Sequence record: PQ850607.1
Length of the DNA: 56,332 bases
Direction: 5' to 3' (one strand)
Origin: Escherichia phage HelliStehle_Bas95
Part shown: piece by piece, positions 2,376-44,759 of the stretch
Numbering within the stretch: position 1 is the stretch's first letter
Layout of the letters: each line of letters opens with the position of its first letter
Notes under the pieces: model-generated
Told to the model about the DNA's origin: nothing
The model's database searches: none
What the model saw: the letters and a program-made list of their open reading frames with translations, nothing else
Program-made: the position numbers and the translations under genes

Positions 2376-3910
2376 CGCTCCATACGGGCTGTACCAGAGT
2401 TAAACAACTGGCCGCAGCCCGCTTTCTCCCACGCATCACGCTGAGAAGTGTAGTCGCCTATCACCTTGCCCATCTCCTTCAAAGTTGACTCAATGTTAGC
2501 GTGCTGCCACTTCTGGCGACTCATGAAGTACCCGCGATCGCTCCAGATACGGAACGACTCGACCACGCTCACAACCTTGAAACCTATAGCTTCGTAAGCG
2601 CTACCGGTGAAGTAGTCATAGTCGGTGAACGTGTAGGTACAGGGTGTTCCTTTCAGCAGACGCGACAGGCCACCTTGCACTGTACATGACGTTGCATATC
2701 TCACCAGTTCCCCATCGTTGGCTACACCAATTGCAGCAACCAGACCGAGCGTCGGGTGTACCAGACCTTTGCGGATAGCTGCCACTCGCCCACGCTGAAC
2801 GTGGTTGTCTTCCATGAATGACATGTAGTCACTCGATGACAACTCAACAACCTTACACTTACGTGCGCCAACCTTTGGCTCACTCGACTTACCCAGCGCG
2901 TGCGCAATGATGCGTTCAATCTGCGGGCGACGCTCTGACCAATCCGTGGCCGACACAGAGATTAGACGGTAACCCTGAGCGTTGCAGAGTTCACGTTTCA
3001 TCATATGATAACCCTTGCGGTCCTTATGCCAGTACTCACCGTTAAACTCGATGGCAACCTTGCACGACTCGATGACGATGTCGAGTTCATAAGGTGCGAT
3101 GATGGACTTGACGTTGTGGGCAACTGTTACACCAAGTGACTCGATATACTCACGCACTTCAATCTCACCACGTGAAACCTGCGTTGACTGTGCACAATGA
3201 GGGCAACCGCTCTTATTCACGATGACATTGTTGACCCGAGCAACCCATTGCTTCCCGCAGTCACCGCACTCGAATTCGCTGTCACCCTTACTTTCTTTGT
3301 AGGTGAGTAGGGTGAGGTTGGAAGGTAAACGACGCTCAATCTCTTCACGTGGTATTACTCGCGCTTTCCCATTGCGACGTTGCCCACAACCTTTACAATA
3401 ACGCTGCCCTGTCATCACGCCGTGCGCGGATGTTTCACGCTCACACCCGCAATCAGCACAGGTGAACACGCTCTTACCTTCCGCTGTCCCACAGTATCTG
3501 ACAAGCTTCACGCCTTCCGGTAAGCGTGCAATAACATCAGATTCGCTAAGCGCGTTACGTTGAGCGGCGCACACCTTGCATCCGCTCCCTTTGGTTAACA
3601 GGTCTTTACACGTAGTTTCCCACTCGTGACCCTCAGTGCAACGGAAGGTACTGCGTTCACGCCGTGATCCACCGTAGGTGACCAGGGTGATACCTTCGGG
3701 CATTGCTGGTGCAGGTTTAACGAAGCGTTGACCGCGGTTACGCTCGGAGCACGCAGGGCAACCTGATGATCTGAATTGTGCGTTGGTTGTACGTGACCAA
3801 TGGTGGCCGCACTCGACGCAACGGAATTCACACACCTTGTCAAGTTTCAGGAGCACCACACCTTTCTGTAAGCGCGGGATAACGTCGGCGTGAGTTAGTT
3901 TAGCTGGCAT
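2372..3910 (-). CDS. zinc-ribbon repeat protein with PD-(D/E)xK (DUF559/Vsr-like) nuclease motif; putative free-standing homing endonuclease
   Basis: 512 aa; four tandem CxxC...HxW...CxxC ribbons, then ELDIV ... AIEFNGEYWH motif; opposite strand inserted between terL and tail-fibre genes. Confidence 0.65.
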   Translation of the reverse strand: MPAKLTHADVIPRLQKGVVLLKLDKVCEFRCVECGHHWSRTTNAQFRSSGCPACSERNRGQRFVKPAPAMPEGITLVTYGGSRRERSTFRCTEGHEWETTCKDLLTKGSGCKVCAAQRNALSESDVIARLPEGVKLVRYCGTAEGKSVFTCADCGCERETSAHGVMTGQRYCKGCGQRRNGKARVIPREEIERRLPSNLTLLTYKESKGDSEFECGDCGKQWVARVNNVIVNKSGCPHCAQSTQVSRGEIEVREYIESLGVTVAHNVKSIIAPYELDIVIESCKVAIEFNGEYWHKDRKGYHMMKRELCNAQGYRLISVSATDWSERRPQIERIIAHALGKSSEPKVGARKCKVVELSSSDYMSFMEDNHVQRGRVAAIRKGLVHPTLGLVAAIGVANDGELVRYATSCTVQGGLSRLLKGTPCTYTFTDYDYFTGSAYEAIGFKVVSVVESFRIWSDRGYFMSRQKWQHANIESTLKEMGKVIGDYTSQRDAWEKAGCGQLFNSGTARMER

Positions 3911-20450: not shown

Positions 20451-21133
20451 TGTCAATGATGGATGCTATGAGCATGGGCGCACAGCCTGAACAACCTCAG
20501 CAGCCGCAGGGAGGCCAGCAACCGGGGCAATCTTTCATGCGCATGGGTGGCGATGACCCTGAAGAAATGCAGGCGCTTTTCACCAAAGTGATGACGCTCA
20601 TTTCTGAAGAGATTTGGGAAGGTCAGGGTGCCGACCAGGTTACCGCTCAACTGGTACAGGATGACTCCGAACCCGCTGAAGTTGTCGGCAAGTTTGTCGG
20701 ATTCTACATTCTCATGGCGATGTCAGCAGCTAAAACGAAAGGCGGCATGTTGCCCCCAATCGTACTGGTGGCCGCAGCAGGTGAGACGTCAAGCCAGCTT
20801 ACCGACATCGCGTTGATGCTCAAGCTGATCAGTCCTGAAGAAGCTGACGACGTGGCGGATGCCGGGGCGCTGATCGGTCTGGAAGTATTGCTGGCTAACG
20901 GCGGTAACCAGATGGAAGGTGACGAGTACCAGGAGTTTGCCGACATCACTAAGGCGATCATCAATGCTTCACCTGACGCTCAGGAAATGGCAGCAGACGG
21001 CGCTGAAGATGCAATCGAAGACTTCGAAGAAATGGGCGCACCTGAAGACAGCGGTGAAGAAGAAATGGTGCAAGAAGATATTGATGACGACGTTAAACCG
21101 CGGGGCATGGCCGCTGCAATGGGAGGCATGTAA
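20450..21133 (+). CDS. hypothetical acidic protein
   Basis: 227 aa, Asp/Glu-rich. Confidence 0.5.
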   Translation: MSMMDAMSMGAQPEQPQQPQGGQQPGQSFMRMGGDDPEEMQALFTKVMTLISEEIWEGQGADQVTAQLVQDDSEPAEVVGKFVGFYILMAMSAAKTKGGMLPPIVLVAAAGETSSQLTDIALMLKLISPEEADDVADAGALIGLEVLLANGGNQMEGDEYQEFADITKAIINASPDAQEMAADGAEDAIEDFEEMGAPEDSGEEEMVQEDIDDDVKPRGMAAAMGGM

Positions 21134-22116
21134 TGAGCATCGGTGAAGCACTGGCGTCAATGTTTGCGGGTGCCGCTGGCGAAGCAGCAGGTAATCGGGC
21201 GGTAGAGATCCGCGACGAAGAAAAGGCACGCATCGCTGAAGCACGCGAAATGAAAATGATGGCACTCCAGCAGAAGTACCAGACGTCCGAGCGTGAGGCC
21301 AGTCAGGCTTACGGCACCGCTGAGCGTCAGGATACTCAGGGTTGGCAGTCTGGCGAGAAGCAGAAAGACCGTGACTTCCAGTCGTCTGAACGTGCTGCGT
21401 CTCAATCCTTCCAGGCGGTACAATCGGATAAAGCGCGTGCTTACCAGGACGCTAAAGAGAAGAAAGCGCAACTGGCGGCACAACAAGAATCCGCAGCGGC
21501 GGTAGGTAGTGTTGACGATTTAGGTAACGCTATCAAACTCGACGGTACACCTTATAAATTGGGTGGCCAGTGGTTGCGCGCTAAACAGTATGCTAACGGT
21601 CGCATTGTGGCTGAACCGCTGGGTGCTACCGCTGCCGAGAAGATGGATAGACGCGTAGCGCTTGAGAATGACGACGGTGACACGCAGAAGTCTCGTGATC
21701 TCACAATCGTTAAAGAAGGTATTAAATCCGGCGACACAACAGGTGTATTCGGTTCGTTTATCAACGCAGGCAACATGGCAGGTGACCTGGCGAGTGCTAA
21801 ACTCGGTAGCGAGAAATCACGCGATGTTTACAACGCTGTAAACCGTATCAATGGTGCGTTGTTGGCACAAGGCGTGGCCGATGCGAAAGCGATGGGTGCA
21901 TCGGGCATCAACACCGCGGCAGAAGCACAGATGTACTTCAAAGGATTGCCGTCGCTTGACTTGTCAAGCCCCGAAGCAGCAATGCGTGCCATTAACCAAA
22001 TCGATGCGTATAATAAAGACTTCAAGCAAAAGCAGCGGCAAGAAGTCGGGCTACCAGCGAACCCCGTGTCTAAACAAAGTAGCGACGGGTCGTTCGGTAG
22101 CAAATACGGTTATTGA
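21133..22116 (+). CDS. hypothetical virion protein
   Basis: 327 aa. Confidence 0.5.
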   Translation: MSIGEALASMFAGAAGEAAGNRAVEIRDEEKARIAEAREMKMMALQQKYQTSEREASQAYGTAERQDTQGWQSGEKQKDRDFQSSERAASQSFQAVQSDKARAYQDAKEKKAQLAAQQESAAAVGSVDDLGNAIKLDGTPYKLGGQWLRAKQYANGRIVAEPLGATAAEKMDRRVALENDDGDTQKSRDLTIVKEGIKSGDTTGVFGSFINAGNMAGDLASAKLGSEKSRDVYNAVNRINGALLAQGVADAKAMGASGINTAAEAQMYFKGLPSLDLSSPEAAMRAINQIDAYNKDFKQKQRQEVGLPANPVSKQSSDGSFGSKYGY

Positions 22117-22122
22117 TTCAAG

Positions 22123-22142
22123 CCGCCCTACGGGGCGGTTTT
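22123..22142 (+). terminator. intra-operon terminator/attenuator hairpin
   Basis: CCGCCC-tacg-GGGCGG followed by TTTT. Confidence 0.5.
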
Positions 22143-22157
22143 CACAGGAGTACTATC

Positions 22158-24362
22158 ATGGCACGTCCTTTTTCTGAAATCGCAGCATCCCCCGAGTTTC
22201 AGGCTGAAACACCGGAGACTCAGGAAGCAATCAAACAAGACTATTTCAATAAGGTGATCCGCCCACAGGTTGAGGCCAATGGGGACGACCCTGACGAGGT
22301 TTTCAACGACTTCTCGTCAAAGTACACATTCAAACAACCTGAAGCGCCTGTGCAGCAACCTGAAGCGCCTGTGCCGCAACAACAGGTTCAACCTTCACCG
22401 GAAGAACAGCAGGCCGCAGCAACCGTTCAGAACTATCTGAACAAGCCCGCTGAAACAGGTTACACCCTGGCCTCATCAGGTAGTGAACCACAGGAAACTA
22501 ATACCGGTATCATCGGTGCTATCAAAAATGCTGTTACTGGTGGTGACGCGGCGGAAGGTAGTGCCGCAAGTTTACCTCTGGCAGGTGAAGCGCCTGAGTT
22601 CTTTGGTAACGGTGTGGACGAAGAACTGAAGAACGGCGACGCACTAGACCAAATGCTCAATTGGGCTGGCAACAGGCTCGGAGGCATCGCTACGAATATG
22701 TTTGGTGGTGACGATTCAATCATCAAACGTGCGGAGTCTCGCGGTGGTAAGGTGTCACAGGATGAGCAGGGTAATGTAATCATTACTTTCCCGTCGGGTA
22801 AATATCAGGTTAACAAACCCGGTCTGGACATCAACGACGTTGCTAAATTTACGGCACAGGCAGCCCCTGCGGTCGCTACAGGTGGAGCGGGTGCAGCATT
22901 AGGTCTCGGCGGACGAATGGTCGCGCAGGGAGCGATTCAGGGCGGTTTAAACTACGCTCAGCAAAAAGCTGTAGAAGCTGGCGACGGTCAGAATGTTGAC
23001 ATGGGTGATGTTGCACTTAACGCGACACTGGGTGGTACTGGTGAGTTACTTGGCCCGGCCCTGCGCGGTGGTCGTGAAATTTTCAAACGCGGCTTAGGTA
23101 ATGCTGACGAGGCCACGAAAGAAGCGTTGAAGATTGCCGACGAAACAGGTATCCCAATCGCCACTTCCGACATGATTGCCGCAGGTGATCTCGGTGGCGG
23201 TGTAACAAAATACGCATCTGCGGTTACAGACAAGCTCGACCCGTTTGCCGCAGGTCGCCTGCGGCAACAGGAACTGATCCCGGAAAAGACCGCCGACATT
23301 TTTGTTGACCCTGAAGTCGCCGCAAAATATACAGACGAAGCTATGATTGAAGCGCTTGATAAAGGTAGTCGCGCACGCATGGCCGACGCTGGTAAACGCT
23401 TCGAAGAAGTGAAGACAGCTATGGGTGACCAGCCGATTCCCGTCCGAAATACCTCAGCGGCTATTGACGACGTGCTGAAAGAATGGGAACGCCCTGGGAC
23501 ACTCGTCGACAAAGGTGACATTGAATACCTGAAAGACATTCAGGCGAAGCTCACAGAAGCGCCACAAGATGTGATTATGCTTCGCGAAAACCGCACGCGC
23601 CTGCGTCAGTCGTTCGGATCCGGTATGAACAAAATGCTGGGTAAAAATGACCTTCAGAAAGCAGGGCGTAAAATTTACGACGCTTTGACTAAGGACATGC
23701 ACGAAGGTGTTGAAAACACGCTGGGTGCTGATGCTTTGACAACGCTCAAATCGGCCGACAAAGACTGGGCGTCTATCAATAGCGATTTAGGTTTCCAGAA
23801 AATTGCGGCAGCCGTTAAGAAAGGCGAGGCCGACCCCGCGCGACTGCGTGAAACGTTAACATCATTCGGCACGGGCGATCTACAAGCGCTTGACCGCAAT
23901 CTCAACGCCGAAGGTCGGAATATGATCAAAGGCGCTGTACATAAAAACTTAATGGCAGCTGCAACCAACGCTGACGGAGAATTTCAACCAGGGGCAATGT
24001 TGCGTGCCATTGAGAAAAACAAGGACGTCATCAAGCAGTTCTACACTCCCGAACAGGCCAAGCAGATTGAAGGTGTGAAGAAACTTCTGTCCACTGCGCG
24101 CGGTGCTAAGGCTGCAACGACCATTGCTAACAACGGTGGCTTGATGCTTCCTATCACTGCGGCGATGGGTGTTGGTTCGGCGGGAATCGGTGGTATTGCG
24201 GCGGCTGCGGGTGGTATTGCGGCTAAACGTTTGAGTAACTCTCGCCCAATGCGAAACGCGCTGATTCGTCTGTCCACCATGAAACCCGGCAGCATGGCCT
24301 ATTACAAGACAGTGAGACAAATCAACGCGATCATCGCGAATCAAGCATCTACCGACGAGTGA
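22158..24362 (+). CDS. large virion protein (possible internal/injection protein)
   Basis: 735 aa from ATG 22158 with SD ACAGGAG; last gene of the + morphogenesis block. Confidence 0.5.
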   Translation: MARPFSEIAASPEFQAETPETQEAIKQDYFNKVIRPQVEANGDDPDEVFNDFSSKYTFKQPEAPVQQPEAPVPQQQVQPSPEEQQAAATVQNYLNKPAETGYTLASSGSEPQETNTGIIGAIKNAVTGGDAAEGSAASLPLAGEAPEFFGNGVDEELKNGDALDQMLNWAGNRLGGIATNMFGGDDSIIKRAESRGGKVSQDEQGNVIITFPSGKYQVNKPGLDINDVAKFTAQAAPAVATGGAGAALGLGGRMVAQGAIQGGLNYAQQKAVEAGDGQNVDMGDVALNATLGGTGELLGPALRGGREIFKRGLGNADEATKEALKIADETGIPIATSDMIAAGDLGGGVTKYASAVTDKLDPFAAGRLRQQELIPEKTADIFVDPEVAAKYTDEAMIEALDKGSRARMADAGKRFEEVKTAMGDQPIPVRNTSAAIDDVLKEWERPGTLVDKGDIEYLKDIQAKLTEAPQDVIMLRENRTRLRQSFGSGMNKMLGKNDLQKAGRKIYDALTKDMHEGVENTLGADALTTLKSADKDWASINSDLGFQKIAAAVKKGEADPARLRETLTSFGTGDLQALDRNLNAEGRNMIKGAVHKNLMAAATNADGEFQPGAMLRAIEKNKDVIKQFYTPEQAKQIEGVKKLLSTARGAKAATTIANNGGLMLPITAAMGVGSAGIGGIAAAAGGIAAKRLSNSRPMRNALIRLSTMKPGSMAYYKTVRQINAIIANQASTDE

Positions 24363-24964
24363 TTACGGAAAGGGGTGTTGTACAGCCCCTTAATTTCTTT
24401 AATTGCTGCGGTCACGTTCGTAAACCAGACGATTCTAGCAAAGAACACGACCCCCAACGTACACCATGAAATGAACCATGTCATCGGGTCCATAACACCG
24501 AAGAATGCTGGCGCAAACGTCAGGGTGAACGCCATACCGACATAACCTACAACATTCATGACAGCATTAAACCACGACTTTTTAAGCATCTCGGTCATAG
24601 CAAAACGCATGGCTTCTTCTGTCAACTCTCCGCGATTAGTGCGCTTGATTTTGGATACGGTAGGTGTTTTCGACATGTTCAGGACAAACCACACACCACC
24701 AGTGATCACTAAAGTACCAACACTCAGTACATCAAAGGATAAACCTGCGACGATAAGTAACAGACCTACAGTCCAGTTGAAGGTGCGGGATGTACCGAAC
24801 AATGCGCCAAACACCGCCTGTGTAGTCCGCTGACCAACGTATTTCTTCAACGTCTCCAGGTCTTCAACTTTATAGCGATTTAACGACACTACGCGTACAG
24901 CGTGCAATCTGTTGTCAGCACCGTAGTATTTAACGTTTCTGTTTTTCTTCTCTGAATATTTCAT
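24341..24964 (-). CDS. polytopic membrane protein of unknown function
   Basis: 207 aa with about 4 hydrophobic helices; 3' end overlaps the convergent 735-aa gene. Confidence 0.5.
   Translation of the reverse strand: MKYSEKKNRNVKYYGADNRLHAVRVVSLNRYKVEDLETLKKYVGQRTTQAVFGALFGTSRTFNWTVGLLLIVAGLSFDVLSVGTLVITGGVWFVLNMSKTPTVSKIKRTNRGELTEEAMRFAMTEMLKKSWFNAVMNVVGYVGMAFTLTFAPAFFGVMDPMTWFISWCTLGVVFFARIVWFTNVTAAIKEIKGLYNTPFRNHSSVDA
24370..24391 (+). terminator. terminator hairpin closing the morphogenesis block
   Basis: AAGGGG...CCCCTT stem followed by AATTTCTTT. Confidence 0.5.
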
Positions 24965-25472
24965 AATTTTCTCTCACTATTCGTGTATAGCCGCGATTGT
25001 ATTTGAACTCTGGTCCCCAGTCTGTGACACGTGCCACATTGTGGAAATTATGCATTTCGATTCTGATTTGCGATTCTTTACAGCCAAACATGGCCGCTAT
25101 CTTGTCGCACCAGCTGAGATCCGTTTCAGCAATTCTGGCGACAACCTCATCGGCCACGGTTTGTGGAGAATCGATACCGTAAAGGTCTTCTATTTCCAGC
25201 CATAACTTAGTACCTGCCAGCCGCCTGGTCACCGACCACAACCATTGTGTATGTGCTGTTTGACCCAATGCTTTACGGGGTGACATATGCCCCAGTATTT
25301 CGTGCCTGGCGACTTCTTTCAGTCTGTAGGCAGGCATCGGGAAGAACACTACAGCTTCCTCACTGTACAGCGCCACCGCCTCAACGTTATAGGGCATCGG
25401 GTGAAACGACTCACACTTCAGATAATGAACGTCACATATACCGTCAACCAACCTGTCTACATAAGCACTCAT
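24930..25472 (-). CDS. HExxH-motif protein (putative ImmA/SprT-like zinc metallopeptidase)
   Basis: 180 aa containing VARHEILGHM; strong SD AAGGAGG; overlaps downstream membrane-protein gene. Confidence 0.45.
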   Translation of the reverse strand: MSAYVDRLVDGICDVHYLKCESFHPMPYNVEAVALYSEEAVVFFPMPAYRLKEVARHEILGHMSPRKALGQTAHTQWLWSVTRRLAGTKLWLEIEDLYGIDSPQTVADEVVARIAETDLSWCDKIAAMFGCKESQIRIEMHNFHNVARVTDWGPEFKYNRGYTRIVRENYEIFREEKQKR

Positions 25473-25492
25473 AGAGCCTCCTTTTCACGTCA

Positions 25493-25528
25493 AATATACT
25501 TGACGATGTTAACGCTGTCAAGTATATT
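25493..25528. promoter_or_regulatory. overlapping divergent sigma70-type promoters embedded in a 12-bp perfect inverted repeat
   Basis: + strand TTGACG-17-TATATT (25500-25528); - strand TTGACA-17-TATATT (25493-25522); AATATACTTGAC/GTCAAGTATATT dyad around GTTAAC. Confidence 0.6.
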
Positions 25529-25557
25529 CGGAAAACCACTAAACGGAGATCACATCA

Positions 25558-25769
25558 TGAATTTACCACCGTTACCACCATCGTCACAGATATTCAGAGA
25601 AACCCTGAAAATTGTCAGTGACGCTAAGTCACGCGGAGTAACCATCGGCAGCACTGTAAACTACGGCGGGTCGACGTATGTCGTCGATAAGTTTCACGGT
25701 AGGGCGGTACGTCTTCTTAACGACACAGGTGGCGCGATTATAGTTGACGTCAGAGAGGTCAACCGATAA
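25558..25769 (+). CDS. small hypothetical protein
   Basis: 70 aa; SD ACGGAG; downstream of + promoter. Confidence 0.5.
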
Positions 25770-25810
25770 GCTGTAGTTTCTCGATGACATTCCCTGTAGA
25801 TTGATAGCGC

Positions 25811-25841
25811 GCCCTTTCCACTTTGGTTAGGGCTTTTTTTT
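25811..25841 (+). terminator. rho-independent terminator
   Basis: GCCCT...AGGGC stem followed by T8. Confidence 0.5.
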
Positions 25842-25887
25842 GTGCTATTCTCTAGTCTGGAGTTACAGGGTGCATGGAGCATTTCAT

Positions 25888-26262
25888 ATGGACATGGGAT
25901 ATTACAACATGAACAAGCAGATTAGAGTGGAAATGCTTGTCGGCATGGTGACACTTGCATGGTCAATCGTGGCGGCAGTCTTCAAACAGCCGATCATTAT
26001 CGACGAGTTATCTGGTGTTATGCCGGGCGCATATTGGGTATTCTCAGGTATCGTAATCGGAGGCGCACAAATCTTCATCTCCCGCAATCCCGACCGATGG
26101 ATGGGAACATTCAGTCACTGGTGTGTAGCGTTCTTCAGTTGTATCTTCTGGTGTTATCTCGGCATGGCCGCACAGGCTGCCGCAGTAGGAGTTCTTCCCG
26201 TCCTGATTTTCTGGTCAACCGCTGGTATCACTTTATGGGAGTTGGCTCATGTTCGAACTTAG
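25888..26262 (+). CDS. membrane protein
   Basis: about 125 aa, several hydrophobic helices; start codon uncertain. Confidence 0.45.
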   Translation: MDMGYYNMNKQIRVEMLVGMVTLAWSIVAAVFKQPIIIDELSGVMPGAYWVFSGIVIGGAQIFISRNPDRWMGTFSHWCVAFFSCIFWCYLGMAAQAAAVGVLPVLIFWSTAGITLWELAHVRT

Positions 26263-26482
26263 TTCAATTCCTGTGGATGCGCCGTTACCTTTCATTGCCA
26301 TCGCTGTGTTATTCAACCTGGTGCGCCATGCGTTGAATCTTCACCACGAACGTAAGAAGGAAGCTGCGGAAGAGGCCACGAACGAAAGGATTGTTTTGTT
26401 GTCAGCTAAACTGGCGAGGGCGGAACAGACTATCGAGCACTTGAGGGAAGAAGTGGAACGCTTAGTAAACAAAGGGGCTTAA
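26249..26482 (+). CDS. small membrane-anchored coiled-coil protein
   Basis: 77 aa; N-terminal hydrophobic helix then charged helical region. Confidence 0.45.
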   Translation: MFELSSIPVDAPLPFIAIAVLFNLVRHALNLHHERKKEAAEEATNERIVLLSAKLARAEQTIEHLREEVERLVNKGA

Positions 26483-26493
26483 CGCCCCTTTTT
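26471..26493. terminator. bidirectional terminator shared by convergent genes
   Basis: AAAGGGGC-ttaac-GCCCCTTTTT; both stop codons (TAA 26480-26482 on +, TAA at 26479-26481 on -) lie in the loop. Confidence 0.6.
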
Positions 26494-26679
26494 AATACTC
26501 GCTGCAATTTTTAACTGCACAGGTACACGGTCAGGATCGCGGTGAATACCTACATCCGACGGTGCGGAAATGCGTAGACCGACGTTACCGTTCTCGGAGT
26601 TCTCCACCGTCACGACAATATCGTTACCGATGTAAACACTCTGACCTTCACGTCTGGTAATACGAAGTCCCTTAGCCAT
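26479..26679 (-). CDS. csrA: CsrA/RsmA-family RNA-binding regulator homologue
   Basis: 66 aa MAKGLRITRREGQSVYIGNDIVVTVENSENGNVGLRISAPSDVGIHRD matches CsrA pattern L-I-T-R-R-x-G-x4-I-G-x4-V-T-V...AP..V..HR. Confidence 0.75.
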   Translation of the reverse strand: MAKGLRITRREGQSVYIGNDIVVTVENSENGNVGLRISAPSDVGIHRDPDRVPVQLKIAASIKKGR

Positions 26680-26905
26680 TGATCTCCGCCTTAGCTTTCT
26701 TAGCTTTGATGACGCGACTAATCGCCACCAGTAAAGTGATAACACCAGACACGACCGGGAGATATTCCTCCGGTACCACAGCCTGGAATAAATGTGGGGC
26801 AGTTTGCCACACGATGAGTGCTGCGTCAGGTACGGTGGTCAGTACGGTGGTCACAGCGATACCAATAGTAATACCAGCATCATGCAATGCTTTAGATTTA
26901 TCCAT
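26672..26905 (-). CDS. holin-like small membrane protein
   Basis: 77 aa, two hydrophobic helices and basic C-terminus; immediately downstream of endolysin. Confidence 0.55.
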   Translation of the reverse strand: MDKSKALHDAGITIGIAVTTVLTTVPDAALIVWQTAPHLFQAVVPEEYLPVVSGVITLLVAISRVIKAKKAKAEING

Positions 26906-26961
26906 CGTGGATACTCCTTGATTTGGCGTCCTTGCCAGGATGAGCGACCCCGACTGGCCGC

Positions 26962-27492
26962 TTAGATATTGACGCGATTAGCAACCCACCCGTAAATGAA
27001 CGAGCGATTTTTAGCGTTGCTTTCGGTAAGCTCAATATACCGTACGCACTGGAGACTGTTAAGCATTTTCAGTAATACTTTAGTGCCAACGCTACCGCGT
27101 GAACGCAGGAAGTCTGCGAGGGCATTCACTGTACGCTTACCGATAGCACCATCCACTACGAGGCCAGCGCCTGACACAGCGTTGAGTGCACGCTGGAGGA
27201 ATTTACCAGCCACCGTCGGACCCATGTTCACGCCAGTGTCCACCACTTCCGCAGCTACAGCCGGGTCAAGTTCAGCCAGTCGGTGATAGCCGGGATTGAT
27301 CACGTAGTCTTTGTAGTAGATGTCGTAGGCTGTGGTAACAGGTAAGTCCCGCATGTTACCTTTATATCCGGCAGCACGGGCAACCTTTTCAGTGATGCCG
27401 TATTTGGTAGCGCCGCCCGGATCATTCGGATGGTCTACGTATCCACCTTCAACGCGAATAATCTCGTCGATGATTTCACGGATGCTTGTCAT
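26962..27492 (-). CDS. endolysin, glycoside hydrolase family 108 with C-terminal peptidoglycan-binding domain
   Basis: EGGYVDHPNDPGGATKYGIT signature near N-terminus; 176 aa. Confidence 0.8.
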   Translation of the reverse strand: MTSIREIIDEIIRVEGGYVDHPNDPGGATKYGITEKVARAAGYKGNMRDLPVTTAYDIYYKDYVINPGYHRLAELDPAVAAEVVDTGVNMGPTVAGKFLQRALNAVSGAGLVVDGAIGKRTVNALADFLRSRGSVGTKVLLKMLNSLQCVRYIELTESNAKNRSFIYGWVANRVNI

Positions 27493-28343
27493 AGCGTTGC
27501 TCCTTTTTCAGTTACGTATGGCTCGCAAACTTCTGCGAGGATGTCAAGATACCGACTGGCCTTGTCGTACTGCAACAGGATGTCGCCGCAGTCATCAGCT
27601 TCCTTATCCTTATCGTACGGTACCACCATATCGGTGTACCGGGTACACGCGAAGTAACCTTCGTCACCCGCGTAAGAGAAGTTGGCCGCCTGCACATTCG
27701 GGAAGTCCTTCAGCGTGGAGAACACCTTGTCGTTGCCTGACAGGTTTTCCATTTTGCGGAAGGTTGCCGTAGCTTTGAAAGCACCGTACAGGTCCAGGCT
27801 GTCGCCCAGTTCCAGAGGATGCTCATCTTCCCGGTCGATGTTCAGCGTAGCTCGTACCATTTGGCAAAACGCCGTAGGCTGGAGATAACTTTCAATCGGC
27901 AGGCTGTTAAAAGCCTGACGCAATAGTTGCGTGACCTTTTCAACCACACGGGGAGAAGCGCCCACAAAAAGAGCATCTCGATCTGGGTCATACGCCACCC
28001 AGCCGTAGTCGTTAGAAGGGAGTACGTTCTCCCACATTTCCGCTTTAACTTGTTCATAAATGGCATTGGATTCATCCCGGTTAAAAGTTTTATCTTTAGT
28101 GCGGCGAGCGAACTCAGCACGCAACCACTTGTCCGGCACCTTGCGTTTCTGGTACTGGAACTGTAGGAAGGTGATGCCCTTGTGTACCCAGGTCATCTCG
28201 TCCTGCATAGGGTTAGCCGCGATGAGGCCAATGCTTTCTTCGTTCCCTGCAGTGCACGGTTTGAAGTACGCATCCTCATTCGGCTTCGACAGGTCAAGTT
28301 CCTTCTCGACCGTGAACGCGGTGACTTTAAATTTTGCCGTCAT
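27489..28343 (-). CDS. hypothetical protein (weak resemblance to recombination-associated RdgC)
   Basis: 284 aa; call is tentative. Confidence 0.45.
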   Translation of the reverse strand: MTAKFKVTAFTVEKELDLSKPNEDAYFKPCTAGNEESIGLIAANPMQDEMTWVHKGITFLQFQYQKRKVPDKWLRAEFARRTKDKTFNRDESNAIYEQVKAEMWENVLPSNDYGWVAYDPDRDALFVGASPRVVEKVTQLLRQAFNSLPIESYLQPTAFCQMVRATLNIDREDEHPLELGDSLDLYGAFKATATFRKMENLSGNDKVFSTLKDFPNVQAANFSYAGDEGYFACTRYTDMVVPYDKDKEADDCGDILLQYDKASRYLDILAEVCEPYVTEKGATL

Positions 28344-28692
28344 GTTCTTCCCACCAGATTAATTTTTCCAGGCAGTCTTTCGCCTTGTTCAAATCTTCCA
28401 GACGCTTCGCCTTGTCGCCTTTCTTGCGCAGGTATTTAACCACGCTGAACTCCAGGCTACTCAGGTTGTTCACCATTGCATATTCGAAAGGTTGAATGCC
28501 TTTCTTATAGTGCTGGCCGCCCACCTGGTTATCCCACGGATTGACACGCGGCGCGACACTGAATGAATTACCAAACACTGTACCGGTATCAGTTTTCGGT
28601 ATACCCAGGTCGACACCACTGACCGCAGGCTTCCACGGGCAGTCAACGTTGTCGTGGTTTTTACCACAGGCTGAGCAATATGATTGAGTCAT
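28327..28692 (-). CDS. DUF3310-like phage protein with N-terminal zinc ribbon
   Basis: GGQHY..GIQP.EY ... KYLRKKGDKAKRLEDLNKA pattern. Confidence 0.55.
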   Translation of the reverse strand: MTQSYCSACGKNHDNVDCPWKPAVSGVDLGIPKTDTGTVFGNSFSVAPRVNPWDNQVGGQHYKKGIQPFEYAMVNNLSSLEFSVVKYLRKKGDKAKRLEDLNKAKDCLEKLIWWEEHDGKI

Positions 28693-29255
28693 CAGAATTT
28701 CTTCCCATGTGCTTCAGCGCGAGCGCCAGGTTGATGGTCGGCACGCTTACGGTTGTAAGCAACCTTCTCCATGATGGCCCCGATGATATCCAGGTTTTCG
28801 CTTTCGGCGATGTCGAGAATGCGGATGATTGCGTCGGCCAGTTCCACTTCCAGCATGGAGCGGTTCGGCAGGTGGTCATCCATCAGGTTCTTACGTGCAC
28901 CTTCCATCGCTTCAGAGATCTCACTGTGCACCAGGCACAACAGAGTACCCATCTCACGCGGCTTATCCCACCAACCCATCTGACGATTCTGACGGTGGAT
29001 GCGACGTTGCAGGATAGCGAACGGGATACTGCGGTACAGTTCGGTGCTGGCCGACTCGACACGCTTGCAACCCATCACTTCAGACTCAACTTCCACTTTC
29101 CCATCTTCAGCTTTGATCGGATTAATACTCATCTTTTCGGAATCCTTATTAGGTTGATTGTCTTTCATGAAACTGTGACCACCATGAATCGATTGATTGC
29201 AGCCGGGTGATGCACCAACTTCGTTTACACCACAGTGTATGCAAGATCTACTCAT
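28692..29255 (-). CDS. MazG-like nucleoside triphosphate pyrophosphohydrolase
   Basis: C-terminal EMGTLLCLVHSEISEAMEGARK...ELADAIIRILDIAE; start placed at ATG 29255 with SD GGGGA. Confidence 0.6.
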   Translation of the reverse strand: MSRSCIHCGVNEVGASPGCNQSIHGGHSFMKDNQPNKDSEKMSINPIKAEDGKVEVESEVMGCKRVESASTELYRSIPFAILQRRIHRQNRQMGWWDKPREMGTLLCLVHSEISEAMEGARKNLMDDHLPNRSMLEVELADAIIRILDIAESENLDIIGAIMEKVAYNRKRADHQPGARAEAHGKKF

Positions 29256-29382
29256 CTTTTTCATTCCCCTTTTTACGACCGATTTTACCACTGCATACAG
29301 GGCATTCCTCGCCCCACTTCTTAGCACTGTAATGACCGTGCTCGCCACACTTCCGTAAATCGTTAAGCCATAAGATAGCCAT
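29248..29382 (-). CDS. small zinc-ribbon protein
   Basis: 44 aa MAILWLNDLRKCGEHGHY...CPVCSG; below six-frame track cutoff; downstream of promoter at 29416-29444. Confidence 0.4.
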   Translation of the reverse strand: MAILWLNDLRKCGEHGHYSAKKWGEECPVCSGKIGRKKGNEKDE

Positions 29383-29448: not shown

Positions 29449-30039
29449 TTATTTTATTAAAAGTTTGTGCGCTTGAAAAATGTACCAAAGGTAATTCACA
29501 TTATTCCAGTCGAGACGGGAGGCCAGGCTACAATCTGATACAAGTTGACCTGAGCACATGCTTGATTCTGTCACATCACCCCATCGACTTTTATTCTTCG
29601 TGTGGATGCGCTCGTCGTGCGGCACCCCGGCAGCGTCCAGCTTGCGCAACATGGCGATCACCGGGTCAGCCAGCAGTTCCGCAACCACGCTGTCGTAATA
29701 CTGGTCCGTCAGTTTGTTCTTACGCTTCCACGTTCCGGGCGTACCCTTCGGTGCCGTGCGCTTAACTAGTGTGCCGCCGGACTGCGCGACGTAATACCGG
29801 ATAGTGTTGGACAACTTCTCTTCGTGGCCGTCCGGGTAAACCAGATGCAGCGACGAGTCACGGTTAACCTTGCCACGTAACATGAAGTCGTAAGGGTCAC
29901 GGTGGTTGATAATGAACGACGTTAAGTCTTTACCATAAACCATATGCTCCACCACCGCCTTCTGCACCACCAGGGCGGAGTGATCTTTATGCCACTCACG
30001 ATCGAATGCGTAAGCGCCTTTCAATTTCAACTTGCTCAT
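29449..30039 (-). CDS. hypothetical protein downstream of DNA polymerase
   Basis: 196-aa ORF, different frame from polymerase ORF, in-frame TGA 7 codons upstream of its ATG. Confidence 0.5.
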   Translation of the reverse strand: MSKLKLKGAYAFDREWHKDHSALVVQKAVVEHMVYGKDLTSFIINHRDPYDFMLRGKVNRDSSLHLVYPDGHEEKLSNTIRYYVAQSGGTLVKRTAPKGTPGTWKRKNKLTDQYYDSVVAELLADPVIAMLRKLDAAGVPHDERIHTKNKSRWGDVTESSMCSGQLVSDCSLASRLDWNNVNYLWYIFQAHKLLIK

Positions 30040-30169
30040 ACAGCCACCCTCTCGACGTCATAACCTTTACACTCGTGTCTATCACCAGCATGTCTGTGGA
30101 AATACGACGGTACCGATGTATGTAGTTTCATTTTCACCAAACCTTAATTACTTGACGATAGCAATATAG

Positions 30170-31711
30170 TTATTCGTACTCCGCAATATAATTGTTGCAA
30201 TCTCGAATGAACATTCGACTGTAACACGCTTCTTCAAGCTCTAACTGGGTAACCTGTTCCCACCACTTACACACGTTGTCAACATGTTCCAGATATTCCA
30301 CCGGACAGTAGTACGTGATACCGTCGGTATTACACTGAATCATCCGAAGGCCCGGAACTTTCAGTAATTGCTCAACCAACATACACAGTGAAAGCTGGCC
30401 TGATACAGTAATCGTGAGTGTGTACTGAGAATCGTAAAACGGGCTGTACGCATTGTTACTGTTGCCGTACGTACCGTTGAGGGCCAGCTTGAAAGCTCCG
30501 CCCATCATCGTCTTTTTACCTACACGCAGACGTTCGTTATACAAAAACTCGTATATCTCACAAAACTTTTCTGACAGGTGCGCAGGGTAAATCTTATTTT
30601 TGATTGCAAGGTTTGGGTAATAACTCGCAACGTCACGATCCCGCACTTTCATCTTATCGTCACTAACTATTATTTCTCTGTGTAACGATGCGTGCAATCC
30701 CCCTGTACCGAAGTCGTAATTGAAATCGTTGATACGACAATGCAAGCTGGCCGCCACAAACTTCGCACCCTCAAGGTCTGTACCCTCTGGCAAGTTGCAT
30801 AAGCGACGTGGCTTTTTAGAACCCTTCACCCACACTTTGATACGCTTCGGGTCCATCCACTTAATCATCTCAGGTGTACATACAATGTCTGAAAACGCAC
30901 CTTTAGTTTCCTTGATTGTCTGAGCGGCCAGGTAGTTCATTACCATTTGAAACGCGGGATGTTCCAGTTTGATGTAAGGTATGATGCATTCTTTCAGCGG
31001 TATCTCTTTACGAATGGTCTGACGAGGTACACGTTTACCGCCTTTCTTTTCGTAACACGGTACACCAGATTTCTCCAGTTCCGTGATGAACACCTCGGCC
31101 CCGATCTTAGTGTCATTATGGTTCATGAAGTCTTTTCCGTATTTCTCGGTAAGCTCTTCACGAAATTGAATCATGTCGTACGACGCCTTGTAAAACTCTA
31201 ATGTCGCATCAACGTCATGGTCGTTGTACGCCCACAGAATTTTCTTTTGGTCATCGTCCAGATGGGTACCGACCGGGAACGGCAGGTCTTCCACACTGTC
31301 CATACGCATTGATATCTCCAGCGCCTTCAGACTGGTAGCCTTAGCCTTGTTATCGAAGTGGTGGATCTTCAGCAGGTCAATCTGCGGTATCAGTCGAGCG
31401 TCAGCCCACATCGGGTAAGCGTTGTCACCTTTAATACGCTGCATGGCCTTCTGATAAATACCTGCTACGGATGCCCACGGATTTTCGTACAACCACTGCA
31501 AAATTTCCCAGTCAAACCACAGGTTGTTGTAACCTACCATACGCTGGTCGTTGTTACGCAGGTAGTTCATGAAATAGAAAAGTTTCTCCCTATCATCTCG
31601 ACGGTCAGATATTTCATAACGGTATCTGTTACCAGACACAGCATGAACCGCACTGAACGTGAAGATGTTGGGGTACGTTTCCAAATCGTAAACATAATCG
31701 CGAGCATCCAT
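30170..31711 (-). CDS. family B DNA polymerase (compact, exonuclease + polymerase motifs)
   Basis: YDLETYPN (Exo I), YNNLWFDWE (Exo II), DVASYYPNL (motif A), KLALNGTYGNSNN (motif B), NTDG in place of DTDS (motif C); 513 aa. Confidence 0.75.
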   Translation of the reverse strand: MDARDYVYDLETYPNIFTFSAVHAVSGNRYRYEISDRRDDREKLFYFMNYLRNNDQRMVGYNNLWFDWEILQWLYENPWASVAGIYQKAMQRIKGDNAYPMWADARLIPQIDLLKIHHFDNKAKATSLKALEISMRMDSVEDLPFPVGTHLDDDQKKILWAYNDHDVDATLEFYKASYDMIQFREELTEKYGKDFMNHNDTKIGAEVFITELEKSGVPCYEKKGGKRVPRQTIRKEIPLKECIIPYIKLEHPAFQMVMNYLAAQTIKETKGAFSDIVCTPEMIKWMDPKRIKVWVKGSKKPRRLCNLPEGTDLEGAKFVAASLHCRINDFNYDFGTGGLHASLHREIIVSDDKMKVRDRDVASYYPNLAIKNKIYPAHLSEKFCEIYEFLYNERLRVGKKTMMGGAFKLALNGTYGNSNNAYSPFYDSQYTLTITVSGQLSLCMLVEQLLKVPGLRMIQCNTDGITYYCPVEYLEHVDNVCKWWEQVTQLELEEACYSRMFIRDCNNYIAEYE

Positions 31712-44730: not shown

Positions 44731-44759
44731 AATATAGGTTAGTTAAATCTGACTGTCAA
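44731..44759 (-). promoter_or_regulatory. near-consensus sigma70 promoter TTGACA-17-TATATT
   Basis: read on - strand. Confidence 0.6.

Follow-up and report, generated by a model that had tools for sequence, protein, structure and literature searches.

A cassette of three genes (1.4 kb, 24341-25778) is located between the ejection-protein and lysis genes of the E. coli podophage HelliStehle_Bas95, and sequence comparison indicates that it joins free-standing copies of two polyvalent-protein domains to a membrane protein, rather than being a wholly new kind of system. The best, still tentative, reading is that of an early, membrane-tethered metallopeptidase drawn from the polyvalent-protein toolkit and expressed by the host RNA polymerase. 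The cassette would then be a compact and testable example of phages repackaging the invasion toolkit. All positions refer to the window, i.e., the whole stretch of 56,332 nt that was analyzed (record PQ850607.1).

Organization of the Locus

A preliminary description treated the 2.1 kb at 24341-26482 as one island of five genes, and all five ORFs are present as described, those of 207 and 180 aa on the minus strand and those of 70, 124, and 77 aa on the plus strand; each is under purifying selection among the relatives compared (dN/dS 0.03-0.32). However, two different things had been merged in this island, namely, the left-hand cassette at 24341-25778 and the right-hand genes at 25888-26482. 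The region is split by a strong intrinsic terminator, T2 (25811-25841, plus strand; hairpin 25811-25833 followed by U8), which had been missed and which ends the 70-aa unit, and, when the loci are compared, the part that the Xuquatrovirus phages PTXU04 and Pondi lack is 24341-25778 alone. Homology to these sister phages restarts about 10 nt past the stop codon of the 70-aa gene. T2 (folding energy -12.7 kcal/mol, z -2.0) is homologous to the terminator that follows gp25 in PTXU04 and Pondi; at the same position, the relative L003 has a different hairpin, and the relative L006 has a second terminator further downstream. What stands of the earlier claim is a self-promoted, terminator-flanked accessory cassette between ejection-protein and lysis genes.

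On the left, the cassette is preceded by two ejection-protein genes. The product of the first (21133-22116, plus strand) is an ejection protein whose C-terminal part is homologous to the C-terminus of P22 gp20 (blastp 40.6% identity, E 6e-21), and the nucleotide homology to PTXU04 stops within this gene, at about 21393. The second (22158-24362, plus strand), which is the final gene of the rightward virion operon, encodes a P22 gp16-type DNA-transfer (ejection) protein of 734 aa that matches PHROG 770 "DNA transfer protein" (E 2.6e-40), N7 ORF13 (blastp E 2e-65), and P22 gp16 (blastp E 7e-27; tblastn to gene 16, E 1e-16 to 3e-17); no similarity of this product to PTXU04 gp25 was found. Where this subclade has the P22-type gp20/gp16 homologues, PTXU04 and Pondi have one giant essential protein, gp25, and its gene occupies the cassette locus in these two phages.

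Promoters and Terminators

Two interdigitated divergent sigma-70-type promoters were assigned by consensus match at 25488-25528. The leftward promoter (-35 at 25521-25516, -10 at 25498-25493; TTGACA-17-TATATT on the minus strand) scores 11/12, and the rightward one (-35 at 25500-25505, -10 at 25523-25528; TTGACG-17-TATATT on the plus strand) scores 10/12; together, they are two of only eight such sites in the 56 kb. Identical hexamers occur at 44759 and 48906, both on the minus strand, in a leftward block of small ORFs. The promoters sit in a 12-nt perfect inverted repeat, and an extra GTCAA half-site is conserved at 25489-25493. The palindromic divergent promoters noted earlier are therefore real, but the dyad does not demonstrate an operator, as its arms are the -35/-10 hexamers. 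Because these hexamers are conserved while the 12-nt center is freely variable (L003-L008), the palindrome is accounted for by the two interdigitated promoters.

Once this DNA enters the cell, the host RNA polymerase would transcribe the cassette independently of the rightward virion operon, and the two overlapping promoters would compete over a single polymerase-binding site. The rightward promoter would drive the 70-aa arm, ending at T2, and the leftward promoter would drive the arm that consists of the peptidase and the membrane protein.

The flanking hairpins reported earlier, at 24370-24391 and 26471-26491, are both present, but the left one does not terminate the leftward operon. This terminator-like hairpin (T1, 24370-24391, plus strand), detected by a scan and assigned to the rightward virion operon, is embedded in the 207-aa gene, at its 3' end, and has its T-run on the plus strand only, so that it would not end leftward transcription. 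Its folding is modest (-11.3 kcal/mol, z -1.65), and its sequence is identical in L003, L006, and L008, while the flanking wobble positions vary.

The 180-aa Metallopeptidase-like Protein

The 180-aa protein (24930-25472, minus strand) contains VARHEILGHM, which had been read as an HExxH motif and is instead HEXXXH (HEILGH); the proposed pairing of a metallopeptidase-like protein with a membrane protein is otherwise supported. Profile comparison identifies the 180-aa protein as a stand-alone member of the HEXXXH domain family, probably a zincin-like metallopeptidase (MPTase) family, that resides within giant phage polyvalent proteins. It aligns with the gp25-type domain (hhalign Prob 95%, E 4e-8), and the domain HMM matches this ORF alone among the 665 ORFs of the window (hmmsearch E 3.6e-6). 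The sole invariant columns of the alignment are H57, E58, H62, E109, and E116, so that the residues which a zincin is expected to use for zinc binding and catalysis (H57, E58, and H62, plus E109/E116 on a later helix) are intact. The family is tiny, with four further clusters in a search of about 15 billion proteins, and the gene evolves under constraint (dN/dS 0.06-0.11). No significant match to a Pfam or PDB profile was found. The AF2 model is poor (pLDDT 46), and at this low confidence it runs from three strands to the motif helix and then to more helices, as in the described core; a Foldseek search returned nothing meaningful.

The closest known relatives are the HEXXXH MPTase domains of large polyvalent proteins (PMC5512222, Iyer et al. 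2017), such as PTXU04 gp25 at about residues 1110-1235 and the giant proteins of the Vibrio phages 1.232.O, douglas 12A4, and 1.205.O, of Aeromonas phiARM81mr, and of Dolichospermum Dfl-JY45. Judging from its motif and context, the gp25 domain is a likely member of the published set of HEXXXH peptidases (PMC5512222). The 180-aa protein shares with these domains the RHE[ILV]xxH motif, the downstream [AG][DE]E[VIA]...E helix, and the phage context, and it is encoded in the same genomic slot as gp25 of the sister phages. It differs in that it is free-standing, whereas the others are one domain in a protein of 1,200-3,300 aa, and in that its gene runs against the virion operon, has a sigma-70-type promoter to itself, and is coupled to a membrane-protein gene; in addition, the protein is extended by about 60 residues at the C-terminus.

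Two other groups may be compared. ArdC-type and other conjugative-element MPTases fall in the same broad zincin-like group and are used by invading DNA in its early phase (PMC5512222), but, by description, the ArdC-type domains differ from the 180-aa protein in their canonical HEXXH, in their fusion to a domain that binds ssDNA, and in that they accompany the DNA. ImmA/IrrE (M78) pairs recall the cassette in having a small zincin-like protein beside a divergent small protein, with a palindromic promoter region. However, no member of the 180-aa family matches Pfam Peptidase_M78/DUF955 at any E value up to 10, the motif has HEXXXH spacing, and the 70-aa protein matches no DNA-binding family and is a homologue of a polyvalent-protein domain.

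The 207-aa Membrane Protein

The 3' end of the peptidase gene overlaps the start of the 207-aa gene (24341-24964, minus strand) by 35 nt. The overlap is maintained, at 35 nt in the clade and at 1 nt in the distant lineage L009, and on this ground the two genes are probably translationally coupled. Hydropathy predicts the 207-aa product to be a polytopic inner-membrane protein with four TM segments in two hairpins, and it places the C-tail, the basic N-terminus, and a loop at residues 97-131 in the cytoplasm. In alignment A2, the soluble segments show conservation, whereas TM3 varies; the AF2 model is poor (pLDDT 48). The homologues form only five clusters (63-96% identity), tblastn against phages found none, and no homologue is detectable outside the clade, L009 included, where the membrane-protein counterpart has diverged past recognition and the peptidase still has 34% identity. 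The gene is the fastest evolving of the cassette (dN/dS 0.10-0.32, dN up to 0.28).

The peptidase and the membrane protein, when produced together, would form a complex that holds the peptidase at the inner membrane. The cytoplasmic face is proposed for this site because the soluble portions of the membrane protein are predicted to lie almost entirely in the cytoplasm. The peptidase would there cleave a protein target in the invasion phase.

The main rival to this scheme is superinfection exclusion like that of P22 SieA, in which the 207-aa protein and the tethered peptidase would block or destroy, at the inner membrane, the gp20/gp16-type or polyvalent DNA-delivery conduit of later related phages. 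It is a somewhat unlikely explanation and yet a live one, given the sieA-like position. As in the sieA/immI slot of P22-like phages, the cassette lies downstream of, and convergent to, a gene 16 homologue; in P22 and N7, a self-promoted gene for a membrane or accessory protein is transcribed leftward there, and divergent promoters that overlap and a small gene in the rightward direction likewise follow. Furthermore, the gene pair is linked to a gp16 homologue in two distant lineages, SieA is also a polytopic inner-membrane protein, and the rapid divergence of the membrane protein up to an unrecognizable L009 counterpart would be expected of a specificity determinant. On the other hand, no sequence or profile homology between the 207-aa protein and SieA was found (hhalign Prob 0.2%), PHROG and PADLOC searches gave no match, the conserved cytoplasmic SieA motif FxRYPxEAxxFNK is missing from the 207-aa sequence (by eye), and the predicted periplasmic loops are tiny. 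SieA works alone, whereas the 207-aa protein is always paired with the peptidase gene, and sieA-type genes are sporadic (22/66 P22-like phages), in contrast to a cassette present in all the clade contigs seen. No integrase or repressor was noticed in passing among the ORFs examined, and PTXU04 serves in experiments as a lytic phage that forms plaques.

The 70-aa Protein and the Polyvalent Protein gp25

The 70-aa protein (25557-25769, plus strand) is a stand-alone copy of a second, uncharacterized gp25 domain: it aligns with residues 633-692 of PTXU04 gp25 (blastp 51% identity, E 2e-18; tblastn E 2e-13) and is the only pairwise-detectable match to gp25 in the window. Its gene has a dN/dS of 0.06-0.15, and neither a DNA-binding nor any other family was matched in Pfam, PHROG, or NCBIfam. 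The metallopeptidase-like and membrane-protein pairing had been put forward as the best candidate for an undescribed system, but the system is not wholly undescribed, since two of the three cassette proteins are free-standing homologues of gp25 domains. gp25 itself counts among the large polyvalent proteins by its match to Pfam LPD38 (E 1.6e-38); a CRISPRi-ART study of PTXU04 likewise names it polyvalent and gives it the score "Fit" (PMC11879866).

The prediction for polyvalent proteins is that they act as effectors on the side of the invader and come in together with the DNA; zincin-like peptidases of the HEXXXH variant are reported in those of the phage type, autoprocessing or effector roles are proposed for their peptidases, and solo versions of some of their domains are encoded near polyvalent genes (PMC5512222). 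The prediction of invader-side effectors points away from host-protecting defense cargo. An invader-side role is favored, which could consist in removing or processing proteins where the DNA enters, or in disabling a factor of the host envelope or of host defense; the newly synthesized peptidase would do in trans the job proposed for the peptidase domain of an injected polyvalent protein. Two counterpoints may be added. A peptidase that stands alone lacks a polyprotein to act on, and its role may differ from that of the in-cis domain; and the position beside gp16, convergent and self-promoted, is the one of P22 sieA, which favors exclusion.

A related but improbable explanation is that the peptidase, as a trans replacement of the in-cis domain, has virion or ejection proteins of the phage itself as substrates and processes them at assembly or just after ejection. 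The gene adjoins ejection-protein genes in two lineages, the cassette is in all the clade members seen, autoprocessing of packaged proteins has been proposed for polyvalent-protein peptidases (PMC5512222), and P22 gp7 is cut by the host protease OpdA, according to its record annotation. However, the peptidase gene runs against the virion operon and has a separate sigma-70-type promoter, and coupling to a membrane protein would be unexpected for a cytoplasmic assembly protease. Processing is also not known to be required by P22-type gp16 and gp20, which counts against this explanation.

Distribution of the Cassette

The cassette was found in every contig spanning the site in its clade, a subclade of Xuquatrovirus-like E. 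coli podophages with P22-type ejection proteins, and the peptidase and membrane-protein gene pair occurs also in the more distant lineage L009. Its occurrence is thus stable in the clade and not sporadic. Searches of 185,579 species genomes of bacteria and archaea, of E. coli genomes, and of a viral-contig collection gave no homologues, so the cassette is not a circulating defense island.

These data bear on the first proposal of defense cargo, considered here as host-protecting defense or abortive-infection cargo, or as a toxin-antitoxin-like module, in which a cytoplasmic sensor/peptidase activates a membrane-disrupting 4-TM effector in the style of lambda RexAB. The architecture agrees with it, with one cytoplasmic and one 4-TM inner-membrane protein in an adjacent two-gene phage unit, as in RexA/RexB, and a promoter independent of the virion operon; the GC content dips modestly (0.45-0.47 versus 0.50-0.57 in the flanks), and the slot takes moron-like extras, as L006 has added a 72-aa gene with its own terminator. 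The likeness to RexA/RexB is architectural only, with no homology in any library searched. In addition, PADLOC, Pfam, and NCBIfam matches are absent, and the sole detectable relatives are the invader-side polyvalent proteins, all of which makes this proposal very improbable; a host-protecting role is less likely than an invader-side one.

The Right-Hand Genes

The genes at 25888-26482 encode separate, genus-conserved membrane proteins that lie outside the cassette. The first (25888-26262, plus strand; 140 aa in the ORF list, which used a TTG start) encodes the 124-aa protein with four TM segments, a homologue of PTXU04 gp26 with 92% aa identity to PTXU04/Pondi; no homologues were found in phages besides these two, and its dN/dS is about 0.1. 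The second (26249-26482, plus strand) encodes the 77-aa protein, which combines a TM segment at the N-terminus with a coiled coil that the charge distribution predicts to be cytoplasmic; it is a homologue of PTXU04 gp27 (95-99% aa identity) and matches PTXU04 and Pondi only. At the nucleotide level, the two genes are 89-92% identical to PTXU04/Pondi. They had been counted as cargo, but they are conserved core genes of the genus, behind their own terminator.

Whether they are lysis accessories, such as a spanin, an antiholin, or holin regulators of the adjoining lysis cassette, was also considered and seems unlikely. Both products are small membrane proteins, their genes overlap and adjoin the convergent csrA-holin-endolysin genes, and the PTXU04 annotation has no spanin. 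Against this, neither has a significant match to a holin or spanin family or a lipobox, the 77-aa protein giving only sub-threshold matches (PHROG "hol-like", E 0.027; PspB, E 0.041), and its cytoplasmic coiled coil would be the opposite of an i-spanin. The earlier statement that none of the products resemble core phage functions agrees, as regards lysis, with the searches of Pfam, PHROGs, NCBIfam, and PADLOC, in which spanin, holin, and known defense families were unmatched. PTXU04 gp26 and gp27 are both "Not Fit" in CRISPRi-ART (PMC11879866 supplement), i.e., their knockdown has no fitness effect, which is weak evidence as the holin is also "Not Fit". The 77-aa gene and the csrA-holin-endolysin operon converge on a bidirectional terminator, T3 (26471-26491), which is strong on both strands (-14.4 kcal/mol, z -4.2 on the plus strand; -17.5 kcal/mol, z -4.5 on the minus strand) and whose position carries a terminator annotation in PTXU04.

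Genome setting and extent of the variable locus

HelliStehle_Bas95 has a podophage genome related to those of PTXU04 and Pondi, Xuquatrovirus phages of E. coli. In the left 25 kb, 39% of the sequence aligns at about 82% nucleotide identity; over 25779-27000 the identity is 89-92%. The left arm of the window is a rightward virion operon. At the locus treated here PTXU04 and Pondi carry gp25 (2,197 aa), a terminator, gp26 and gp27, followed by the convergent lysis genes. The right homology boundary with these sister phages lies at 25779, about 10 nt past the stop codon of a 70-aa gene and just ahead of a terminator (T2, 25811-25841), so that the variable unit proper, called here the cassette, spans 24341-25778. 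It consists of the genes for a 207-aa membrane protein (24341-24964, - strand), a 180-aa putative peptidase (24930-25472, - strand) and the 70-aa protein (25557-25769, + strand).

The idea that an island had simply been inserted into a genome like that of PTXU04 was rejected, because the left homology break with PTXU04 lies at about 21393, which makes the event a swap of 21393-25778 (4.4 kb) for PTXU04 22054-29292, that is gp24C-gp25 (7.2 kb). The segment in the window holds a gp20-like C-terminus at the position of gp24C-gp25 (E 6e-21), a gp16-like ejection protein of 734 aa (PHROG 770; P22 gp16, E 7e-27; phage N7 ORF13, E 2e-65) and the cassette, and its counterpart in PTXU04 and Pondi holds gp24C and the essential 2,197-aa polyvalent protein. 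No similarity was detected between the 734-aa protein and gp25. Since P22-type ejection proteins together with the cassette are replaced there by gp24C and gp25, the swap implies that gp25 also provides DNA delivery in PTXU04 and Pondi. The locus offers a natural experiment: between near-identical flanks, some phages encode the 2,197-aa polyvalent protein and others two of its domains as small solo proteins next to ejection proteins of the P22 type.

The preliminary description had taken 24341-26482 as one self-contained accessory island of five genes and 2.1 kb. All five ORFs are present and are real genes by purifying selection, with dN/dS of 0.03-0.32 at dS of 0.07-1.5 (mostly 0.2-1.5) in four lineages. 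The single island was not sustained, as T2, a hairpin at 25811-25833 followed by U8 that had been overlooked, splits the region into two units. The cassette was found only in the window and in a handful of metagenomic contigs (L003-L009), and no relatives were found in complete E. coli genomes, IMG/VR viral contigs, 185,579 bacterial and archaeal species genomes or JGI metagenome contigs. As for its supposed moron character, the cassette has its own promoters and T2 and is missing from PTXU04 and Pondi; on the other side, it lies within a larger module swap, is present in all relatives of the clade and has a modest GC dip. One relative (L006, 3467-3685) has an additional 72-aa gene (PHROG 3909, function not assigned), with a terminator of its own, where the 70-aa gene's terminator adjoins the gp26 homologue, which marks this junction as a hot spot for moron-like insertions.

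Conserved genes to the right of the cassette

The genes for the 124-aa (25888-26262, + strand) and 77-aa (26249-26482, + strand) proteins had been counted as cargo. Their products are homologues of gp26 and gp27 of PTXU04 and Pondi at 92-99% aa identity, with no other phage records, and are conserved proteins without assigned function, not cargo. PTXU04 gp26 and gp27 scored "Not Fit" in CRISPRi-ART knockdown, as did the holin, which is weak evidence (PMC11879866 supplement). A role as spanins or holins had been named as an objection to the accessory reading; neither protein has a significant PHROG or Pfam match to a lysis function, the 77-aa protein lacks Cys altogether, and no lipobox was seen by eye in the 124-aa protein. 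Behind its TM segment the 77-aa protein carries positive charges, which predict a cytoplasmic coiled coil.

The terminator that closes this unit (T3, 26471-26491), first proposed from the sequence alone, is strong and bidirectional (z -4.2 and -4.5) and is annotated as a terminator in PTXU04. To its right lies the leftward csrA-holin-endolysin operon on the - strand (CsrA, Pfam E 2.6e-12; holin, PHROG 1356; GH108 plus a peptidoglycan-binding domain). The CsrA homologue (66 aa, 26479-26679, - strand) is encoded by the last gene of this lysis operon, and the start of that gene overlaps the stop of the holin gene. Knockdown of its PTXU04 counterpart, gp28, gave smaller plaques and a 'Semi-fit' score. 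Because both cassette genes have GGA-containing ribosome-binding sites, control of these genes by CsrA is conceivable.

Relation of the cassette proteins to giant polyvalent proteins

Phages and plasmids widely encode giant polyvalent proteins, which are, to our knowledge, almost entirely uncharacterised because of their huge size and their toxicity on expression. That gp25 is one of them was proposed by Adler et al., who described it as a putative polyvalent protein the knockdown of which causes a strong plating loss (PMC11879866). In agreement, gp25 carries the Pfam domain LPD38, "large polyvalent protein associated domain 38" (E 1.6e-38), which is confined to phage-type polyvalent proteins (PMC5512222).

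The clearest connection to gp25 is made by the 70-aa protein. It has no family match in Pfam or PHROGs, and tblastn against 50,697 phage records found it in PTXU04 and Pondi only, in frame inside gp25; by blastp it is 51% identical to gp25 residues 633-692 (E 2e-18), the only pairwise-detectable gp25 match in the window.

The 180-aa protein had been noted for an HExxH motif. The sequence reads R-H57-E58-I-L-G-H62-M, which is HEXXXH, and a distant homologue (P0004) has HELYGH. The solo family is tiny: in collections that comprise 5.8 billion clusters and 1.84 billion representatives only four further clusters turned up, P0004 at 34% identity and the other three at 83-92%. Comparison of the 180-aa protein with gp25 by blastp gave a weak match (E 0.018), in which VARHEILGHMSPR was paired with LLRHEIIVHYGLR, where gp25 has its single HE...H motif, and ADEVVARIAE was aligned to AEEVLALAAE of gp25. 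Homologues of this gp25 segment occur in proteins of 1,186-3,293 aa from Vibrio, Aeromonas and Dolichospermum phages and in an Achromobacter record, and all five that were fetched share [RQL]HE[ILV]xxH[YH]GL and AEE[VA]...E.

Further support for this relationship was provided by profile comparisons. The alignment of the solo family to that of the polyvalent domain with hhalign gave Prob 95% and E 4e-8 over 93 columns, and when the polyvalent-domain HMM was run against the 665 ORFs of the window, the 180-aa ORF was the sole hit (E 3.6e-6; next best 0.85). Across four solo and six polyvalent sequences, H57, E58, H62, E109 and E116 are the only invariant columns. The zincin-like peptidase is the commonest domain of polyvalent proteins, and its core has been described as a three-stranded sheet, a motif-bearing helix and a second helix with a glutamate, a subset having HEXXXH (Iyer et al., PMC5512222). 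The 180-aa family likewise has the HEXXXH motif on one helix and a conserved glutamate on the following one; the AF2 model, with a pLDDT of only 46, places strands at 15-19, 32-36 and 39-43 and helices at 48-69 and 103-117. It is concluded from these alignments that the 180-aa protein is most probably a stand-alone peptidase of the HEXXXH polyvalent type. The motif, the LPD38 context and the sub-threshold hits to Peptidase_M76 and Zincin_1 (E 0.1), obtained with Pfam for some members of the combined alignment, suggest that the gp25 domain belongs to the same set as the published HEXXXH MPTases.

Other assignments were not supported. Membership in ImmA/IrrE, as the motif might suggest, is ruled out by the lack of an M78 hit and by the wrong motif spacing. 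Sequence and profile searches of the PDB gave chance hits only, tblastn of the peptidase against phage records gave nothing, and Foldseek with the pLDDT-46 model found no meaningful match in the PDB (best E 0.37); this model and that of the membrane protein (pLDDT 48) are too poor to use.

A large polyvalent protein combines 2-15 effector domains in one polypeptide and is delivered with the DNA, whereas the 180-aa and 70-aa proteins have a single domain each; they are related, as solo proteins, to individual domains of polyvalent proteins and do not make up such a protein themselves. Both this class of domain and the notion that solo versions exist have already been published, and the system, first put forward as a candidate for an undescribed one, is not fully undescribed; what is new is the pairing of the peptidase with a membrane protein, the exchange of polyvalent and P22-type modules at one locus and the possibility of a protease-based exclusion, all of which are testable.

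The putative membrane partner of the peptidase

The 207-aa protein has two hydrophobic hairpins, at about 63-96 and 132-183. As its N-terminus, the loop 97-131 and the C-tail are all basic, an N-in/C-in topology with very small periplasmic turns is predicted. The conserved parts are the soluble segments. With identities of 63-96% and a dN of up to 0.28, the protein changes more quickly than its neighbours. Its homologues form five clusters, and it has no match in Pfam, PHROGs, NCBIfam, PADLOC or, by tblastn, phage records.

In all clade members the start of the 207-aa gene overlaps the peptidase stop by 35 nt. In the distant contig L009, the gene of the P0004 peptidase overlaps by 1 nt that of a 176-aa protein. 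The latter is built much like the 207-aa protein, with a basic N-terminus, a DP turn and two hairpins joined by a loop of some 30 residues, and shows no detectable homology to it. This pair, too, is convergent to a gp16 homologue (39-54% identity). Because the L009 pair sits in the same way and its partner lacks homology, the pairing and its position are older than the sequence of the membrane partner. The 180-aa solo HEXXXH peptidase with its obligate membrane partner is a tractable handle on the role of the class, its substrate and its site of action.

Promoters and terminators of the cassette

The palindromic divergent promoters first noticed between the two arms match sigma-70 promoters, rightward TTGACG-17-TATATT (+ strand) and leftward TTGACA-17-TATATT (- strand), and are two of the eight sites in 56 kb that score 10/12 or better. 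They are interdigitated in a perfect 12+12-nt inverted repeat, with the order -10L, -35R, 12 nt, -35L, -10R on the + strand. The dyad had been read as an operator, a reading that is unnecessary because its arms coincide with the promoter hexamers, which the relatives keep, and its central 12 nt, completely different in the relatives, are not conserved. The palindrome is thus best read as the signature of two mutually exclusive divergent promoters, and not as proof of an operator. Centred on the leftward -10 is a further palindrome, GTCAA-N6-TTGAC (25489-25504), to which a third conserved GTCAA (25489-25493) contributes. It is kept in all relatives although the neighbouring bases change, and this GTCAA could be a candidate operator half-site acting on the peptidase-membrane protein operon only. 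Hexamers identical to those of the two promoters recur at 44759 (-) and 48906 (-), among the small ORFs of a leftward block. A search of 23800-27200 with Rfam gave no RNA family, and a structured leader of the 70-aa gene was rejected, the hairpin at its RBS being no better than shuffled sequence (z -0.18).

At the left end, the hairpin T1 (24370-24391) exists and is invariant across relatives, with a modest stability (-11.3 kcal/mol, z -1.65). It lies within the last codons of the 207-aa gene, which shares a 22-nt 3'-end overlap (24341-24362) with the convergent gp16-like gene. Its T-run is on the + strand alone, and T1 therefore terminates the virion operon and not the leftward operon. The hairpin is encoded where the membrane protein has its invariant C-terminal tail (KGLYNTPFRNHSS), so the conservation of this tail may reflect a constraint on DNA or RNA rather than protein function.

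Possible functions of the cassette

The domain assignments, the overlap of the two genes, the arrangement of promoters and terminators and the purifying selection are regarded here as established, and on this basis a mechanism may be outlined. Host sigma-70 RNA polymerase would transcribe both arms independently of the virion operon, with the overlapping promoters competing with each other. The peptidase would be made together with its membrane partner, dock on the cytoplasmic face of the latter and cleave a target at the inner membrane in the invasion phase. Domains of polyvalent proteins could in this way change from being injected together with the DNA to being synthesised early from promoters of the host type.

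The main rival is a superinfection exclusion of the SieA type, and the layout of the locus argues for it. Like sieA, the 207-aa gene lies just downstream of a gene 16 homologue and encodes an inner-membrane product, a likeness of position and architecture only. In P22 and N7 the slot past gene 16 is occupied by leftward, self-promoted accessory genes, beyond which lie divergent promoters that overlap (Pant/Pmnt) and a small gene read rightward; the window has this layout. However, there is no homology to SieA: hhalign of the 207-aa protein against P22 SieA gave Prob 0.2%, P22 SieA matches PHROG 7745 and the 207-aa protein no PHROG, and the cytoplasmic motif FxRYPxEAxxFNK of SieA types A-C is absent from the 207-aa sequence by inspection. 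The products of N7 ORF14-16 and P22 orf59a showed no similarity, as was the case for P22 SieA and the L009 membrane protein.

A role on the side of the invader is favoured, as the cassette is a fixed component of the clade and its proteins have no relatives other than the invader-side polyvalent proteins. Cargo that protects the host by abortive infection is considered less likely; a known defence system was sought among all five proteins, and PADLOC returned no family at E up to 1, with nothing significant in Pfam, PHROGs or NCBIfam either. Autoprocessing or effector roles have been proposed for the peptidases of polyvalent proteins (PMC5512222), and processing of the phage's own ejection proteins, such as the gp16-like product encoded next to the cassette, is also thought less likely.

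A more specific reading is put forward as a speculation, with the odds clearly against it. The peptidase and its 4-TM partner would be a new inner-membrane two-component system that arose by unbundling of a polyvalent-protein domain and proteolytically dismantles the injected conduit or cargo, be it gp16/gp20-type ejection proteins or the polyvalent proteins of rivals, for exclusion or for clearing of the entry site; the 70-aa domain would be a third, separately promoted component. If incoming ejection proteins are the target, this would be a new protease-based mechanism of exclusion. Overall, the preliminary observation is partly confirmed and its interpretation partly supported.

Other features of the window

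The DNA polymerase gene is split (29455-31711, - strand). Residues 1-512 of the PTXU04 polymerase map to 31711-30176 and residues 524-716 to 30036-29455 in another frame, and the roughly 130 nt between the parts contain a stop codon, a new ribosome-binding site and an ATG. In the metagenomic relative L003 and in PTXU04 the polymerase is a single gene of 715-721 aa, and Rfam found no family, introns included, in 29700-30500.

The gene at 35868-38732 (+ strand) encodes a 954-aa helicase (ResIII, DEAD, Helicase_C), in which Hint, Hom_end and LAGLIDADG domains near the N-terminus indicate a probable intein with a homing endonuclease. Finally, on the opposite strand, a 512-aa ORF (2372-3910, - strand) separates the structural genes from a 542-aa ORF (747-2375) that synteny with PTXU04 assigns to the terminase region. 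The 512-aa ORF encodes a treble-clef zinc finger of DUF4379 and matches REase_MTES_1575 below the threshold, and may be a mobile insertion of the endonuclease type.
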